Under the pieces are notes generated by a model. It did no database searches. It had not been told where the DNA came from and worked only from the letters and a program-made list of their open reading frames with translations. From an uncultured delta proteobacterium (lineage in GTDB: Bacteria > Desulfobacterota > Binatia > Binatales > Binataceae), in the NCBI GenBank assembly GCA_963815255.1, contig CAWFGH010000012.1, forward strand, positions 268,121 through 332,120: a stretch of DNA of 64,000 nucleotides, given 5' to 3'. The first letter of the stretch is position 1, and the number at the start of each line of letters is the position of its first letter. The translations under genes were made by a program, and so were the position numbers. Shown here piece by piece: positions 12,309-18,515 of the stretch.

Positions 12309-12359
12309 TTGACACGCTTCCAGGCCGGGCATAGTAATTCTAGTTAGTCGATAGACTAA
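12309..12359 (+). promoter_or_regulatory. Sigma70-like promoter of the Rrf2 gene with overlapping palindrome
   Basis: TTGACA (12309-12314), TAGTAAT at 12332-12338, palindrome TTAGTC-gata-GACTAA (12344-12359) immediately before the ATG. Confidence 0.6.
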
Positions 12360-12360
12360 A

Positions 12361-12819
12361 ATGCTCGCGCAGAAGTCCAAATACGCGCTCAGAGCACTGC
12401 TTGTGCTGGCCAAGGAATATGGCCAGGGTCCAGTGCTGATTTCCGATATCGCCCATCGCGAGGCGCTCCCGCAAAAGTTTCTCGAGCTCATTTTGCTCGA
12501 ACTGCGCAACCACGGGATCCTCGGAAGCAAGAAGGGCAAGGGTGGCGGATACTTCCTCGCCCGGCGACCCGAGTTGGTGCACCTGGGGGAGGTTTTACGC
12601 GTGCTGGAGGGGCCTCTCGCGCCTTTACCATGCGTAAGCAAGACCGCCTACGTACGATGCGCCGAGTGCCGGGATGAACGCACTTGCGGCATCCGGATGG
12701 TCATGAAGGACGTCCGAGACGCGACCGCACGAATTCTCGACCAGACCAGCCTGGCCGACATTCTCAAACGCGTCGAGCTCGCCGTCGAGGGTAAGGAAGC
12801 GCTGAATTATGCGATCTGA
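12361..12819 (+). CDS. Rrf2-family transcriptional regulator (CymR/IscR-like) of the sulfate operon
   Basis: MLAQKSKYALRALL, PQKFLELILLELRNHG, SKKGKGGGYFLA, EGPLAPLPCVS...C.EC.DE..CGIR. Confidence 0.92.
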   Translation: MLAQKSKYALRALLVLAKEYGQGPVLISDIAHREALPQKFLELILLELRNHGILGSKKGKGGGYFLARRPELVHLGEVLRVLEGPLAPLPCVSKTAYVRCAECRDERTCGIRMVMKDVRDATARILDQTSLADILKRVELAVEGKEALNYAI

Positions 12820-12835
12820 ATTTTTTTGGCTGATT

Positions 12836-12856
12836 AGTCTACTAAGATAATCGATT
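12836..12856. promoter_or_regulatory. Second candidate Rrf2 operator
   Basis: AGTCTACTAAGATAATCGATT matches ATTCTAGTTAGTCGATAGACT (12337-12357) at 13 of 21 positions; AT-rich and directly upstream of the DUF2292 ATG. Confidence 0.45.
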
Positions 12857-12857
12857 T

Positions 12858-13046
12858 ATGGGACTAAAAGAGCAACGATCCGATCAGGCAAGAGCTGACA
12901 CCTCGAACGCCGATCTTGCCCGCGTGCTCGAGGAGATCGAGCGAGCAATCAGGACCGTCGCTTACGGTTCGGTCGAGGTCATCATCCAAAACTCTCGCGT
13001 GGTGCAGATAGAGCGTAAGGAAAAATTTCGCTTCAGCGAAAGTTGA
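12858..13046 (+). CDS. YezD/OscA family small protein (DUF2292)
   Basis: IERAIRTVAYGSVEVIIQNSRVVQIERKEKFRF signature; typical position upstream of sulfate uptake genes. Confidence 0.85.
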   Translation: MGLKEQRSDQARADTSNADLARVLEEIERAIRTVAYGSVEVIIQNSRVVQIERKEKFRFSES

Positions 13047-13084
13047 ATCCTTATCCTGCCGGCGGATCGTCAGCCGGGCCGCCA

Positions 13085-13146
13085 ACCGGACAACCGGAGG
13101 CGTGAAGTTCAGAAACAACAGGGCGAACTGACCGGACCACCGGAAG
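13085..13146 (+). repeat. Two 16-nt direct repeats in the DUF2292-porin leader
   Basis: ACCGGACAACCGGAGG (13085-13100) and ACCGGACCACCGGAAG (13131-13146); each contains two ACCGGA units 8 nt apart. Confidence 0.8.
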
Positions 13147-13172
13147 TTCCGACCGCGAGGAAGGAGACTTCA

Positions 13173-14600
13173 ATGGTTCGGTTTCGGTTTCGATGGTTTG
13201 CGATCCTGGCGGTGGCCGGGATCAGCTTACTTGGATCGCGTCCCGCGATGGCGCAGTCGCCAACAGGGGCGCAAACACAACTGCAGAACGAGATCGATCA
13301 GCTCAAGCAGAAAGTTGAAGCGCTGGAGGCGGCAAACGCCCAGCTTCAGCATCTCGATCAGCAGGTCAAGATCGTCGATCGCAAACTCAATCAGCAGCAA
13401 AGCGCCACGCGCGAGGAGGCGCTCACTCGCCCGGTAGTCGACGTTGGGCCGGACGGGTTTTTTATTCACTCCCAGGACAACAGCTACAACTTGCGTATCG
13501 GCGGCTATATGCAGGCTGACGGGCGGTTCTATCTTTCTGAGCCGAAGCCAACCGGCAGCGAATTTCTGATACGCCGTCTGCGCCCGTACTTCGAAGGCAC
13601 GGTCGCCAAGTACTACGACTTTCGCTTCATGACAGATTTCGGTCAGGGTACCACCACCCTGGAGGACGCTTACGCCGACATTCATTACTGGCCCGAATTC
13701 CGGCTCCGTGTGGGCAAATTCAGGGAACCCGTGGGGCTCGAAAGATTGGAAGAGGACCGCGCGATCAAGTTTGTCGAGCGCGGCCTGCCAACCGATCTCG
13801 TGCCCGACCGAGACTTAGGCTTTAACCTCCACGGCGACTTGTTTGCGCAGCGAGTCGAGTACGCGCTGGGGTTCTTCAACGGCACGCCGGACAATACCGC
13901 CACTGACGACAGCGATAACAACGACGGCAAGGATTTCGCCGGCCGTATCTTCGTCCATCCCTTCGCCGACACCTCGCTCGAGTACGTCCGTCAGCTCGGC
14001 CTCGGTATCGCCGGCACCTATGGTGACGAGCGCTCGACGACTATCGACAGCACCTACAAGTCGACCGGCCAGGCCGTGTTCTTCACCTACGCCAAGGGTG
14101 TGATCGCGTCGGGTCCGCGTTACCGCTATTCGCCGCAGTTCAATTACTACTGGCGATCCTTCGGGTTATTGGGCGAATACGTACAGAATACGCAGAGGCT
14201 GCTTTTGCCGTCGTCCAAGAACGCGCACCCACAACCGATCAGCAATCAGGCCTGGCAGCTCGCCGCGACATACCTGGTAACCGGCGAAGACGCGACCTAT
14301 GGACAGGTCAAGCCGCGTCGAAATTTCGATCCGATCGACGGCGGGATCGGCGCATGGGAGTTCGCGGCGCGAATCGACAAGCTGCTGATCGATCGCGACG
14401 TCTACAAATACGGGTTTGCCAGCTCGTCTACCTCGGCGCTGGAGGCTTTCGAATGGGCGGTCGGCGTCAACTGGTATTTGAACCCCAATGTGAAGATGCA
14501 GTTCGACTACGAGCATACGGGCTTTCGCTACGGTGCCGCGAAGGGCCATGACCGCCCTGATGAAAGCGTGCTGTTAAGCGAGCTGCAGCTGCAGTTCTAG
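13173..14600 (+). CDS. OprO/OprP-family anion-selective porin
   Basis: Signal peptide, short coiled coil, then GGYMQADGRF, FLIRRLRPYFEG, GKFREPVGLERL, FVERGLPT, GVNWYLNPNVK and C-terminal LQLQF. Confidence 0.88.
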   Translation: MVRFRFRWFAILAVAGISLLGSRPAMAQSPTGAQTQLQNEIDQLKQKVEALEAANAQLQHLDQQVKIVDRKLNQQQSATREEALTRPVVDVGPDGFFIHSQDNSYNLRIGGYMQADGRFYLSEPKPTGSEFLIRRLRPYFEGTVAKYYDFRFMTDFGQGTTTLEDAYADIHYWPEFRLRVGKFREPVGLERLEEDRAIKFVERGLPTDLVPDRDLGFNLHGDLFAQRVEYALGFFNGTPDNTATDDSDNNDGKDFAGRIFVHPFADTSLEYVRQLGLGIAGTYGDERSTTIDSTYKSTGQAVFFTYAKGVIASGPRYRYSPQFNYYWRSFGLLGEYVQNTQRLLLPSSKNAHPQPISNQAWQLAATYLVTGEDATYGQVKPRRNFDPIDGGIGAWEFAARIDKLLIDRDVYKYGFASSSTSALEAFEWAVGVNWYLNPNVKMQFDYEHTGFRYGAAKGHDRPDESVLLSELQLQF

Positions 14601-14636
14601 TTCGTGGGGCTCCCGCATCACTTGAGGAACCGGACT

Positions 14637-15650
14637 ATGAGCTTCAGCAAAATACTATTCGCGGCGGCCGGGTTGCTGACGGTACTCGGAAGATTCACAC
14701 CGGCCATGGCGGCGGCGCAAACGATTCTCAATGTTTCCTACGATCCGACGCGCGAATTTTACGCCGACTACGACGCCGCGTTCGAGAAATACTGGAAGGC
14801 AAAGGCCGGCCAGGACGTCGCCATCAATCTGTCCAACGGCGGCTCGGGCAAACAGGCCCGCGCCGTCATCGACGGTCTCGAGGCCGACGTTGTCACGCTC
14901 GGCCTCGCCTACGATATCGACGCCATCGCCGACAAGGCGCACCTGTTGCCGGCCGACTGGCAAAAGCGCTTGCCGCAGGACAGTTCGCCCTACACGTCGA
15001 CGATCGTTTTCCTGGTGCGCAAGGGCAATCCGAAAAAGATCAAAGACTGGCCCGACCTGGTGAAGCCGGGAATTGAGGTCATTACGCCCAATCCCAAGAC
15101 TTCGGGCGGCGCGCGCTGGTCCTATCTGGCCGCCTGGAGCTATGCGCTCAAGGCTCCGGGCGGAAACGAAGCGGCGGGCAAAGAGTTTGTCACTAAACTC
15201 TACAAAAACGTTCCGGTGCTCGATTCGGGAGCGCGCGGCTCGACCACCACGTTCGCCGAAAGGGGAATCGGCGATGTGCTGCTGTCGTGGGAGAACGAGG
15301 CCTACCTTGCGTTGCAGCAGTTTGGCACCGGCAAATTCGAAATCGTTTATCCTTCCAGCAGCATTTTGGCCGAGCCGCCCGTCGCACTGGTCGACCGGAA
15401 TGTCGATCGGCATGGAACGCGCGCGGTGGCGCAAGCTTATCTAGAGTACCTCTATTCGGCTGACGGCCAGGAGATCGCAGCGAAGCACTTTTTCAGGCCG
15501 AGGCTCGCAGCAGCGGCGAAACAAGGACCAGACTTCCCGCCGATAAAGCTGTACACGGTGGAGGAAATTTTCGGCGGCTGGCAAAACGCGCAGAAGACGC
15601 ATTTTGCCGACGGCGGAGTGTTCGACCAGATTTACCGGCCTGGACCTTAA
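14637..15650 (+). CDS. sbp: Sulfate ABC transporter substrate-binding protein
   Basis: [59 protein letters not shown]. Confidence 0.96.
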
Positions 15651-15665
15651 CCGTCCGGATGAAAC

Positions 15666-16520
15666 TTGGTGATGAGAGACAGGATGAAAACGCGTTCGCC
15701 CGCGCCCAATGTACTGCCCGGGTTTGGCCTCACGATGGGCTATACGATCATCTACCTGAGTCTGATCGCGCTGATTCCGCTCTCGACGCTAATCCTCAAG
15801 ACCGCCGGCATGGGATGGGGACGTTTCTGGCACGTGGTGGCCTCGCCGCGCGTCGTTGCGGCGTACGAACTGAGTATCGGCGCCTCGCTCGCCGGAGCTA
15901 CGATCAATTCGATCTTCGGGATGCTGGTGGCGTGGACGCTCGTGCGCTATCGCTTTTTCGGCAGATCGATCATCGACGCGCTGGTCGATTTGCCCTTCGC
16001 GCTGCCGACCTCGGTCGCTGGGATAACGCTGACGGCGGTCTATTCCGCCAACGGATGGCTGGGGCGACTGCTCGCGCCTGCGGGAATCAAGGTCGCATTC
16101 ACGCCGCTCGGCGTGATCGTCGCGCTGACCTTTGTCGGGCTGCCGTTCGTGGTGCGTACGGTGCAGCCTGTGCTGCAGGAACTGGAGCCCGAGCTTGAAG
16201 AGGCGGCGGCCACGCTCGGGGCGTCGCGTCTGCAGACTTTCCGGCGCGTGATCGGACCCGTGCTCTTGCCGGCACTGCTGACCGGGTTTGCGCTCGCCTT
16301 CGCCCGCGCGCTCGGCGAATACGGCTCGGTGGTTTTCATTTCGGGCAACATGCCGATGCGAACCGAGGTGGTGCCGTTGCTGATCATGACCGAGCTCGAA
16401 CAATTCGACTACCAGGCAGCGACGGCGATCGCGCTGGTGATGCTGTTGATGTCGTTCGCGATGCTTTTCCTGATCAATCTGCTGCAGCGATGGAGTGCGA
16501 GGCGCCATGCAGTCCGATGA
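15666..16520 (+). CDS. cysT: Sulfate ABC transporter permease CysT
   Basis: DALVDLPFALPTSVAG, PFVVRTVQPVL, EEAAATLGASR, ALGEYGSVVFISGNMP. Confidence 0.95.
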   Translation: MVMRDRMKTRSPAPNVLPGFGLTMGYTIIYLSLIALIPLSTLILKTAGMGWGRFWHVVASPRVVAAYELSIGASLAGATINSIFGMLVAWTLVRYRFFGRSIIDALVDLPFALPTSVAGITLTAVYSANGWLGRLLAPAGIKVAFTPLGVIVALTFVGLPFVVRTVQPVLQELEPELEEAAATLGASRLQTFRRVIGPVLLPALLTGFALAFARALGEYGSVVFISGNMPMRTEVVPLLIMTELEQFDYQAATAIALVMLLMSFAMLFLINLLQRWSARRHAVR

Positions 16521-17448
16521 GGGCGAGATAGGCCGTCTGATGAGAGAGAACTACGCGTGGATAGCCCCGCTGGATCCGGCCCGATCGATCCGGGGCGCGA
16601 CGGTCGAACCGCGATGGGTGCAAGTGCTGCTCACGGGCGGCGCAATCCTTTTTTTGGGCGTCTTCCTGTTCGTTCCACTGGCGGCCGTCTTCGGCGAGGC
16701 GTTGCGCAATGGGGTGGGCGCGTATGCCGCGGCGATCGCACAGCCCGAGGCCCGCAGCGCCATCAAGCTCACGTTGCTGACGGCGACGGTGGTGGTGCCG
16801 CTTAACCTGATCTTCGGGCTGGCGGCATCGTGGCTGCTCACGCGTTTCGAGTTTCGCGGCAAGAACTTGCTCACGAGCTTGATCGATTTGCCGTTCGCGG
16901 TTTCGCCGGTGATCGCGGGCATGATTTACGTGCTGCTGTTTGGCGCGCAGGGCTGGTTCGGTGGCTGGCTCGGCGCGCATCACATCAGGATCATCTTCGC
17001 GCTTCCGGGAATCATCCTCGCGACTACGTTCGTCACCTTCCCGTTCATCGCGCGCGAGCTGATTCCGCTGATGGAAGCGGCGGGAACGGACGAGGAGGAG
17101 GCCGCGCTCACGCTCGGTGCGAGCGGTTGGCAGATGTTCTTTCGGGTCACGCTGCCCAACGTGAAGTGGGGGCTGCTCTACGGGCTGGTCATTTGCAATG
17201 CGCGGGCGATGGGCGAGTTCGGCGCCGTTTCCGTGGTCTCGGGCCATATCCGCGGATTGACCAACACGATGCCGCTCTATGTGGAAATTCTCTACAACGA
17301 TTACGACTTCGCAGCTTCTTTCGCGGTGGCGTCGCTTTTGACCTTGCTTGCGCTGTTGACGCTCGCCGCCAAGTCCGTGCTGGCCCGCCGCTCGCTGCCG
17401 TCGCGCGAAGAGCCGCAGCCGAAACAACCCGCCAGGCTGGTGGCATGA
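16507..17448 (+). CDS. cysW: Sulfate ABC transporter permease CysW
   Basis: [57 protein letters not shown]; start codon uncertain. Confidence 0.95.
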
Positions 17449-18515
17449 GCATCGACGTCAGCAACATCCGCAAGCGCTTCGGCTCGTTCGTGGCGCTCGA
17501 TGACGTGAGCATCAGAATCCCGACGGGCGAGCTGGTGGCGCTGCTCGGCCCTTCAGGATCGGGCAAGACGACGTTGCTGCGCATAATCGCGGGCCTCGAG
17601 ACGCCCGACGCCGGACTGGTCCGCTTCGATCGCGAAGAGGCGACCAACCTGAGCGCGCGCGACCGCAAAGTCGGGTTCGTCTTCCAGCACTATGCGCTGT
17701 TTCGCCATATGACGGTGTTCGAAAACGTCGCATTCGGGTTGCGCGTGCGTCCGCGCCGGCTGCGCCCCACAGAGCAGAAAATTCGCGCGCGGGTTGAGGA
17801 ACTGCTGGGGCTGGTGCAGCTCGATTGGGCGGGCCAACGTCTGCCCTCCCAGCTCTCAGGAGGCCAGCGCCAGCGCGTCGCGCTCGCGCGTGCGCTCGCC
17901 GTCGAGCCCAAGGTGCTGCTGCTCGACGAACCGTTTGGTGCGCTCGACGCCAAGGTCCGCGAGGAGCTGCGGCGATGGCTCCGGCGGCTGCACGACGAAC
18001 TGCATATCACGAGTGTCTTCGTCACTCATGATCAGGAAGAGGCGCTCGAGCTGGCCAACAAGGTAGTCGTGCTCAACAAAGGACAAATCGAGCAGGCGGG
18101 CACGCCCGAGGAGCTCTATCACCATCCGGCGACGCCTTTCGTCTACAACTTTCTCGGCAACGTCAACCTGTTTCACGGCCGCGTGCACGACGGCAAGGTC
18201 TATATCAGCGGCACGCCCATAGCGGTTAATTCGGGCCACGATCTCGCCCGCGCTGACGGCCAATCCGCAGCGGTTTATGTAAGACCGCATCTGCTCGACA
18301 TCCATCTCACGCCCAACGGGGGAAGCTCGTTCCCGGCCACCGTCAGACACATCAATTCGGCTGGTCCGACAGTCAAGGTCGAACTGACGAGCCAATGGGG
18401 CGACCAGGTGCACGTGGAAATCGATCACGAACGGTTTCGCGCGCTGCGGCTCGCGCGTGAAAAGCAGGTTTACCTGAGCCCGCGCGAAAACAAGGTGTTC
18501 ATCTATCAAATCTGA
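17445..18515 (+). CDS. cysA: Sulfate ABC transporter ATP-binding protein CysA
   Basis: ATGA overlap with cysW; [44 protein letters not shown]-like tail. Confidence 0.96.

Follow-up and report, generated by a model that had tools for sequence, protein, structure and literature searches.

Tandem hairpins between a DUF2292 gene and a porin gene of an uncultured Binataceae bacterium: a conserved RNA element and candidate switch in the leader of a sulfate uptake operon

Sulfur assimilation is a core pathway whose control is seen as based on transcription factors (CysB, CymR), besides S-adenosylmethionine (SAM)-type riboswitches and T-boxes. The Bacillus hut operon (HutP) and the pyr operon (PyrR) open with the gene for the regulator; the RNA that it binds (UAG repeats or the PyrR binding loop) lies just 3′ of that gene in the leader, ahead of the structural genes, occurs in multiple copies, and overlaps a terminator or a ribosome-binding region. 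A similar layout is found in the stretch of DNA analyzed here (the window), 64,000 nucleotides (nt) from an uncultured member of the Binataceae (assembly GCA_963815255.1, contig CAWFGH010000012.1, positions 268,121 to 332,120 of the forward strand). There, an Rrf2-family gene is followed by a gene for a 62-amino-acid (aa) DUF2292 protein, a gap of 126 nt, a Porin_O_P-family porin gene, sbp, and cysT, cysW, and cysA. The DUF2292 family, also known as OscA or YezD, is of unknown function and has been tied to sulfur starvation and the chromate response since 2009. We propose that two hairpins in the gap, H1 and H2, are tandem conserved cis-regulatory RNA hairpins in the leader of the porin-sbp-cysTWA operon and form a switch with the DUF2292 protein as candidate partner, a reading to which we assign a probability of about 0.5.

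The likeness to the hut and pyr systems extends to the order of parts, with the DUF2292 gene upstream of the RNA in the same operon in most loci, and to a target that is predicted to be exclusive with a terminator or with a helix sequestering the Shine-Dalgarno (SD) sequence. It does not extend to the parts themselves. DUF2292 proteins have ∼60 aa and are unrelated to HutP or PyrR in sequence or predicted fold; no homology to HutP, PyrR, CAT/BglG, or ANTAR proteins was found, the only Pfam match being PF10055. The RNA is a two-helix hairpin rather than a set of UAG repeats or a PyrR binding loop, and DUF2292 is a candidate binder only.

The original prediction described two 16-nt direct repeats in the gap, and both are present: ACCGGACAACCGGAGG at 13085-13100 and ACCGGACCACCGGAAG at 13131-13146, 46 nt apart (these and all window features below are on the + strand). 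The stem of CCGG paired with CCGG under a tetraloop that it proposed is correct but incomplete, an outer helix and an internal loop having been missed. Each repeat forms the central part of a larger hairpin, which comprises an outer helix (P1), an internal loop with GA or AA on its 5′ side and A on its 3′ side, an inner helix (P2, CCGG/CCGG), and an A-C-N-N loop. The distal hairpin H1 (13080..13102; fold -12.1 kcal/mol) has P1 CGCC/GGCG, internal loop AA/A, P2 formed by 13086-13089 with 13094-13097, and loop ACAA. The proximal hairpin H2 (13125..13149; -11.3 kcal/mol) has the canonical form, with P1 GAACU/AGUUC, internal loop GA/A, P2 formed by 13132-13135 with 13140-13143, and loop ACCA. A degenerate repeat pattern allowing up to two mismatches matches the window twice against 0.31 matches expected, a count reached in 5 of 100 shuffles, and the 4.4-Mb assembly holds no copy beyond these two at up to one mismatch. 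Such in-window statistics are modest, so the strong evidence lies in conservation in other genomes.

DUF2292 was sought in 60 related genomes and the DNA 3′ of each match was read. Of the 23 loci read in relatives, 18 have the core CUGACCGGA-loop-CCGGA(G/A)G 3′ of DUF2292, with conservation reaching to the level of class. An exact-pattern scan of named genomes (16 specified bases, 596 Gb) returned 120 loci, most of which we regard as chance matches, as is expected for 16 specified bases in a search of that size; only loci with DUF2292 or a sulfur context were retained. Of the 120, 15 have a same-strand DUF2292 gene upstream of the motif; the distance from the end of its open reading frame (ORF) to the motif is at most about 170 nt in 12 of them. 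These DUF2292-linked motifs occur in Methylococcaceae, Cellvibrio, Marinagarivorans, Alkalimonas, Lysobacterales, Sphingobium, Sphingomonas, and Planctomycetales, and in an Armatimonadota genome (L037) tandem copies precede the porin while the DUF2292 gene lies elsewhere on the contig. The motif was thus looked for downstream of DUF2292 homologs across phyla and found, with occurrences in the window's own class, Gammaproteobacteria, Alphaproteobacteria, Planctomycetales, and Armatimonadota. The class of a Firmicute-like genome (G064) yielded matches in 2 of 201 genomes, one of them the probable false positive in a prophage-like region that is described below. Two same-genus relatives (L007 and L008, in genomes G008 and G011), which account for two of the three DUF2292-positive relatives without the motif, carry DUF2292 followed by a broken-looking locus with porin-like fragments only and no good hairpin.

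The placement of the hairpin is regular. It is always on the strand of its flanking genes and nearly always linked to DUF2292, whose stop codon it follows at 16-170 nt (and overlaps in L110). The next start codon is nearly always some 20-45 nt away, unless the hairpin is joined to an intrinsic terminator; in 30 loci with hand-checked starts the main start codon follows after 19-43 nt (median 27). The genes 3′ of it encode Porin_O_P porins, Sbp, CysK, or a small lipoprotein. In 13 loci of distant lineages a second, more divergent copy lies upstream at a spacing of 40-46 nt (12 loci) or 65 nt (one locus), which indicates that the paired layout is a recurrent architecture and not a local duplication. 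In distal copies CUGA is often replaced by CC(A/G)A, or P2 is CCCG/CGGG or CCAG/CUGG; many other loci carry a single hairpin. Loops have 4, sometimes 5 nt and vary in sequence (ACAA, ACCA, ACGA, ACAU, ACCG, AAAA, and others).

A hand-built alignment of 43 copies has 85% paired cells, pair 8-29 being GC in 15, AU in 12, and GU in 7 copies, and its covariation score was reached by none of 500 shuffles; any bias in this alignment is limited to letters fixed by the search pattern. The covariance model built from it (R1) gave 82 matches, 76 of them distinct, in the loci examined. Across the 76 sequences P2 never breaks yet varies (pair 2 is CG in 72, UG in 3, and AU in 1; pair 3 is GC in 65, CG in 4, AU in 3, and GU in 3), the first pair of P1 is UG in 33, CG in 20, and UA in 19 with only 2 non-pairs, and another P1 pair is GC in 31, AU in 16, and GU in 11. 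Slid controls showed far lower covariation. In the window, H2 scores 42.8 bits with R1 (expectation value [E] 2e-8 in its own genome) and H1 25.8 bits. The repeats are therefore supported by comparative sequence data as RNA-type hairpins with compensatory and G-U changes. With the covariance models of Rfam 15, the gap gave no match (E up to 10) and eight related loci, terminator-type loci included, no relevant one (E up to 1), so that no Rfam 15 family covers the motif. The searchable literature on DUF2292, YezD, OscA, and sulfur leader RNAs mentions OscA/DUF2292 only in passing, as of unknown function, and describes no RNA partner. The hairpin is a real, small RNA family without a description in Rfam or the searchable literature. 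It would combine a new RNA with the known logic of leader antitermination or anti-sequestration, and its partner is possibly a new family of RNA-binding proteins.

The original prediction had preferred an RNA target to a double-stranded DNA (dsDNA) operator, and in this it is borne out by the compensatory and G-U changes, the fixed strand, and the overlap with terminators; the 8-nt internal period that it offered as an argument adds nothing beyond the hairpin itself. A CCGG-N4-CCGG operator for a transcription factor, either the neighboring Rrf2 protein or DUF2292 acting on DNA, would be in keeping with the palindromic form of the unit and with its location just 3′ of a promoter in three loci (L075, L135, and L197) that have the order promoter, motif, intrinsic terminator, and cysK far from DUF2292. 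Weak, non-significant fold matches of DUF2292 also include DNA binders composed of a helix and a hairpin (MADS box, MazE/AbrB). Yet the flanks of the unit are asymmetric (CUGA ... A(G/A)G) and keep one orientation relative to the genes, the outer helix is maintained by G-U pairs (33/74 at one position) that would be mismatches in DNA, the loop varies from 4 to 5 nt, part of the motif coincides with terminator stems, and the coding region holds sequences complementary to it. Variable loop length, G-U pairs, strand, and intra-operon position together argue for RNA. Nor is the motif tied to Rrf2, because many hairpin loci have no Rrf2 gene in reach (none within 8 kb of loci such as L080, L104, and L105); its place is within the operon, 3′ of the DUF2292 ORF, and not at a promoter, where TTAGT...ACTAA palindromes are the better candidates for Rrf2 operators. 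We consider a DNA operator highly improbable.

The hairpin accompanies DUF2292 closely. With motif presence scored at E <= 1e-3, 20 of 61 genomes (the window's own and the 60 relatives) have the motif, all among the 23 with DUF2292 and none among the 38 without it (Fisher p 3e-13). Of 300 Gammaproteobacteria, 6 have the motif; all 6 belong to the 11 genomes with DUF2292, and none of the 289 without it has a copy (Fisher p 5e-10). Pooling both samples, DUF2292 is present in 26/26 motif genomes and the motif in 0/327 genomes lacking DUF2292. Five other gammaproteobacterial DUF2292 loci remained, and the four that were readable contain divergent copies missed by the filters. DUF2292 is also present in all eight genomes with remote or terminator-type copies. 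The operon layout and this co-occurrence make DUF2292 the leading candidate for a factor that locks the hairpin, and it is from gene linkage and co-occurrence that we infer binding between the two.

This distribution also bears on whether the RNA could act as a metabolite-sensing riboswitch, with the hairpin or the tandem pair binding a ligand that reports sulfur status, for example O-acetylserine/N-acetylserine, sulfate, sulfite, or adenosine 5′-phosphosulfate (APS), and DUF2292 being a co-regulated neighbor whose role in sulfur uptake is a separate one. The absence of the motif from all 327 sampled genomes lacking DUF2292 is not something that a free-standing riboswitch would require. A hairpin of ∼25 nt, with four base pairs in the stem and a loop that varies, leaves little room for a binding pocket, most of the conserved letters belong to the helix rather than to loops or junctions, and Rfam gave no match. 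On the other hand, the range of expression platforms is typical of riboswitches (terminator overlap, sequestration of the SD or AUG, tandem copies), the element precedes sulfate-uptake and cysK genes, DUF2292 has no recognizable RNA-binding fold, and very small tandem-hairpin riboswitches such as guanidine-II do exist. Like the window's pair, guanidine-II (mini-ykkC) RNAs are very small and comprise two GC-rich tandem hairpins with tetraloops starting in A-C, just upstream of the ribosome-binding site. They differ in having conserved ACGR loops, whereas window-type loops are A-C-N-N and conservation falls on the stem and the GA/A internal loop, and in preceding guanidine exporter or carboxylase genes instead of sulfur uptake genes; many loci here, moreover, have a single hairpin. 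Neither two ACGR hairpins nor guanidine exporter or carboxylase genes were found. On balance we regard a riboswitch as unlikely.

The direction in which the hairpin might act is suggested by pairings that compete with it. In four loci (L075, L135, L197, and L128) the minimum free energy (MFE) structure retains P2 and contains a complete terminator, and the four pairs at the base of that terminator are made with the 3′ strand of P1. P1 is predicted to share 3-4 nt with the terminator foot in these loci, and enforcing it removes exactly the four bottom pairs, beside the U tract. In L110 the overlap is complete, the 5′ arm of the terminator being the motif's own 3′ half. The foot of the stem is required for termination, so a factor locking P1 and P2 should give read-through.

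In the window the competing partner is the porin translation start region (13161..13183), with the SD sequence AAGGAG at 13161-13166 and the AUG at 13173-13175; pairings of this kind were missed in the original prediction and suggest a mechanism. The MFE structure of 13120-13240 lacks H2 (-55.9 kcal/mol, against -45.8 kcal/mol with H2 enforced). In it, GAAGUUCC (13143..13150), on the 3′ strand of the P1 helix of H2, is predicted to pair with 13163-13171 in the OFF state, and 13130-13139, in the 5′ half of H2, pairs with 13174-13183, covering the U and G of the start codon and the codons after it. The 3′ half of H1 likewise forms an inverted repeat (I3) with 13167-13183. A second stretch complementary to H2, in the porin signal-peptide codons (13205..13226), is its best RNA duplex partner (-23.2 kcal/mol), and another inverted repeat (I7) joins 13132-13142 with 13210-13220. 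The start of the porin ORF (13173-13198) is repetitive, reading ATGGTTCGGTTTCGGTTTCGATGGTTT (MVRFRFRW), and its GGTT(T)CGG units give the CCGG halves of H1 and H2 a choice of several pairing partners.

Across the 30 loci with checked starts, the hairpin is missing from the MFE structure in 25, with pairing between motif and start region in its place. Motif and start region share 13.9 pairs, a figure that falls to 10.0 when the motif is shuffled (p 6e-4), and enforcing the hairpin raises the predicted accessibility of the start region from 0.42 to 0.49 (p 0.008). Duplex energies of the motif with the first 80 nt downstream beat those with shuffled sequence (p 5e-5), with coding sequence further downstream (p 0.002), and with mismatched partners (p 0.014). 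The complements track variants of the motif: L026 combines a CUGG variant with a perfect 10-nt complement, UCCAGUCGUC, in codons 3-6, and L015 has AUCCAGAUUGCCGGUCA. In these predictions both platforms, terminator and translation, agree in direction, with the folded hairpin as the ON state. That the hairpin works as an ON switch is, in our judgment, probable.

We picture the switch as follows. The hairpin leader would be transcribed together with the upstream DUF2292 gene. By default, the strands of H2 would pair with the porin SD sequence, AUG, and first codons, blocking initiation, and in the terminator-type relatives the 3′ strand of P1 would serve as the terminator foot. Locking of P1 and P2 would free the start region, or leave the terminator without its foot, and allow expression of the downstream genes. 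Under sulfur limitation the Rrf2 repressor would leave the promoter, DUF2292 would be made, and the hairpin would become locked, resulting in a delayed, feed-forward activation with a layout akin to that of the hutP or pyrR operons. We hypothesize that the locking factor is the DUF2292/OscA/YezD protein encoded on the same transcript and made after Rrf2 release under sulfur limitation, to which we would give an even chance at best.

The proximity of the hairpin to the DUF2292 stop codon (with overlap in L110) would also suit a structural element that acts without any factor, either as a hairpin at the 5′ end of the porin-sbp mRNA that directs its processing or stabilizes it, or as a device coupling translation of the next gene to that of DUF2292 or of a short upstream ORF. 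Coupling draws further support from copies of the GGAGG type, in which an ATG or GTG follows after 4-8 nt in 12 of 31 cases against 15% expected (p 9e-4). The peptides of these upstream ORFs are not conserved, however, H2 of the window reads GGAAG and has no start codon after it, the stand-alone copies between a promoter and a terminator ahead of cysK have no upstream ORF to couple, and a stabilizing hairpin would not need sequence conservation across phyla. Being enriched in relatives and absent in the window, the upstream ORF is kept as a lineage-specific add-on only, and a factor-independent element is, to our mind, distinctly unlikely. The ORF after GGAGG is mostly out of frame and runs across the main start (L015-L018, L020, L022, L023, L025, and L181); in L010 and L024 the ATG or GTG after GGAGG heads the first long ORF found.

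The preferred partner of the switch, the DUF2292 protein of the window (gene at 12858..13046), matches Pfam PF10055 at 58.3 bits (cut-off 22) and is encoded by a single-copy gene in its genome. It scores 52.9 bits against the NCBIfam OscA equivalog NF033785, below the cut-off of 85, and by these profile matches is a member of the YezD/OscA family, not a confirmed OscA ortholog. An AlphaFold2 model (predicted local distance difference test score 82) comprises a helix (residues 4-33) and a beta-hairpin (37-55). A Foldseek search of the PDB with this model gave no significant match (best E 1.5), and a profile search of PDB sequences returned no relative. In size the protein recalls CsrA/RsmA, a ∼60-aa protein with beta strands that controls translation through RNA with two GGA triplets near the SD sequence. 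The GGA triplets of the present hairpin, however, are placed where the stem meets the internal loop and not in the hairpin loop, the proposed action is activation by hairpin locking and not SD occlusion, and the window protein has no CsrA match in Pfam. Tentatively, DUF2292 may be a minimal, ∼60-aa, sequence-specific RNA-binding regulator that locks the hairpin and so brings about antitermination or de-repression of sulfate-uptake, porin, and cysteine-synthase genes in at least five phyla; we hold this to be possible, at somewhat less than even odds.

Several observations weigh against a switch partnered by DUF2292. The 76-sequence alignment was fitted to the R1 model from which its matches came. 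The alternative pairings are predicted thermodynamically, and the effects are modest in size; the loci sampled are phylogenetically related to each other, and codons of signal peptides are GC-rich in any case. In one locus (L146) the terminator is compatible with the enforced motif and still forms. The predicted fold of DUF2292, a helix plus a beta-hairpin, matches none of the known RNA-binding proteins. A motif-like hairpin of 32.9 bits, GCUGACCGGAAAACCGGAGGC, occurs in a prophage-like, non-sulfur region (L213) of a genome without DUF2292 (G374); this match is probably a false positive, or alternatively a different use of the hairpin. Finally, the co-occurrence of motif and DUF2292 largely reflects physical linkage, because motif and gene form one cassette. 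Since linkage explains so much, the informative cases are the remote copies. Besides the three cysK loci far from DUF2292, genome G067 (L188, L196/L124) has an intact DUF2292 gene upstream of an O-acetylhomoserine sulfhydrylase (metY-like) gene, without a hairpin there, and a porin-leader hairpin that is preceded by a decayed DUF2292 remnant. In these layouts action of DUF2292 at a distance is plausible.

The genes flanking the hairpins in the window belong to sulfate uptake and its control. The Rrf2-family regulator (12361..12819; Pfam PF02082, 119 bits) has four cysteines and is CymR/IscR-like; among NCBIfam models it exceeds the cut-off of the Rrf2 superfamily and falls below those of the CymR and IscR equivalogs. 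It is a probable transcriptional repressor of the porin-sbp-cysTWA operon. The Rrf2 and DUF2292 genes are neighbors in the window's family as well as in L049 and L087, and no Rrf2 gene was found near many other motif loci. The porin gene (13173..14600; Pfam PF07396, 102 bits) is the direct target of the leader control proposed here, and most related loci have a homologous porin 3′ of the motif. It is followed by sbp for the sulfate-binding protein (14637..15650; NCBIfam sulfate-binding protein model, 491.7 bits), cysT (15666-16520) and cysW (16495-17448), both above their NCBIfam equivalog cut-offs, and cysA (about 17445-18515), above the cut-off of the CysA subfamily.

No sigma-70-like promoter was predicted in the 126-nt gap and no terminator-like site on the + strand between 12200 and 13300; H1 and H2 have no following U runs and so lack the GC-rich hairpin plus U tract of an intrinsic terminator. 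This fits co-transcription of DUF2292 and the porin-sbp genes in the window organism. Pseudomonas corrugata likewise has a gene for a small protein of the YezD (DUF2292) family, oscA, directly 5′ of its sulfate-uptake genes. There, as stated in PMC2996968 (citing Viti 2009), oscA and sbp form one chromate-induced transcription unit and inactivation of oscA leads to chromate sensitivity; the authors also connect chromate stress with sulfate starvation (PMC2996968). Chromate sensitivity on loss of oscA, taken with that connection, would fit an activating role.

On the 5′ side of the Rrf2 gene (12309-12359) a promoter-like TTGACA-17 nt-TAGTAA is followed by an inverted repeat, TTAGTC-GATA-GACTAA (12344-12359), before the Rrf2 ATG, and a related palindrome, TTAGT-CT-ACTAA (12834-12845), stands in front of the DUF2292 ATG. 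These TTAGT/ACTAA repeats are probably operators of the four-cysteine Rrf2 regulator. Relatives L005 and L006 have boxes like TTAGTAGACTAA. The arrangement resembles CymR-type repression, in which an Rrf2 regulator heads a sulfur operon with palindromes at its promoters. That transcriptional layer differs from the one considered here in using other sites (12344-12359 and 12834-12845), and the CCGG hairpins often occur without Rrf2 nearby. A post-transcriptional layer beneath the Rrf2 repressor had been part of the original prediction, and the positions agree with it: the hairpins are intra-operon and 3′ of the likely Rrf2 operators, which supports an extra layer of control inside the operon that is not tied to the Rrf2 gene.

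A widespread leader RNA before sulfate porin, sbp, and cysK genes would supply a post-transcriptional layer that has been missing from the transcription factor-based view of sulfur assimilation. The link to the hairpin would offer the DUF2292/OscA/YezD family its first concrete, testable function, and if the proposed switch is real, DUF2292 would represent a new family of RNA-binding proteins with a cognate RNA, forming a post-transcriptional arm of the sulfur-starvation response. With an RNA of ∼25 nt and a protein of ∼60 aa, the pair could become a compact regulatory part; to our knowledge, Escherichia coli has neither the hairpin nor DUF2292.

A lone AACCGGAC between the SD sequence and the ATG of sbp (14628..14635) had been counted with the repeats. 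It exists, but we place it outside the system: the 8-mer is seen 2 times against 2.02 expected, and the porin-sbp spacer is kept in one of three same-genus relatives, where the ATG reads CTG. Two further R1 matches in the window's own genome were judged to be chance. The better of them, and the next best after the two window hairpins (23.6 bits; G000:C3:187174-187213, L149), reads GCUGACCGGAACAUCUCCGGAGGC, has a 7-nt loop, and falls in the first codons of an OPT-family transporter gene; the other (21.3 bits) is beside a TPR gene. A possible third, degenerate hairpin, H0 (13059..13077; -9.8 kcal/mol), comprises CCGGC/GCCGG and a 9-nt loop; with low confidence, its conservation appears confined to the genus, where it is kept in L004-L006, none being seen more widely. 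Two other loci (L009, after 1760, and L172, after 1640) have, in the place of the porin, the gene for a small lipoprotein with a signal peptide, a lipobox cysteine, and the sequence YVC..K.YTS.QL.

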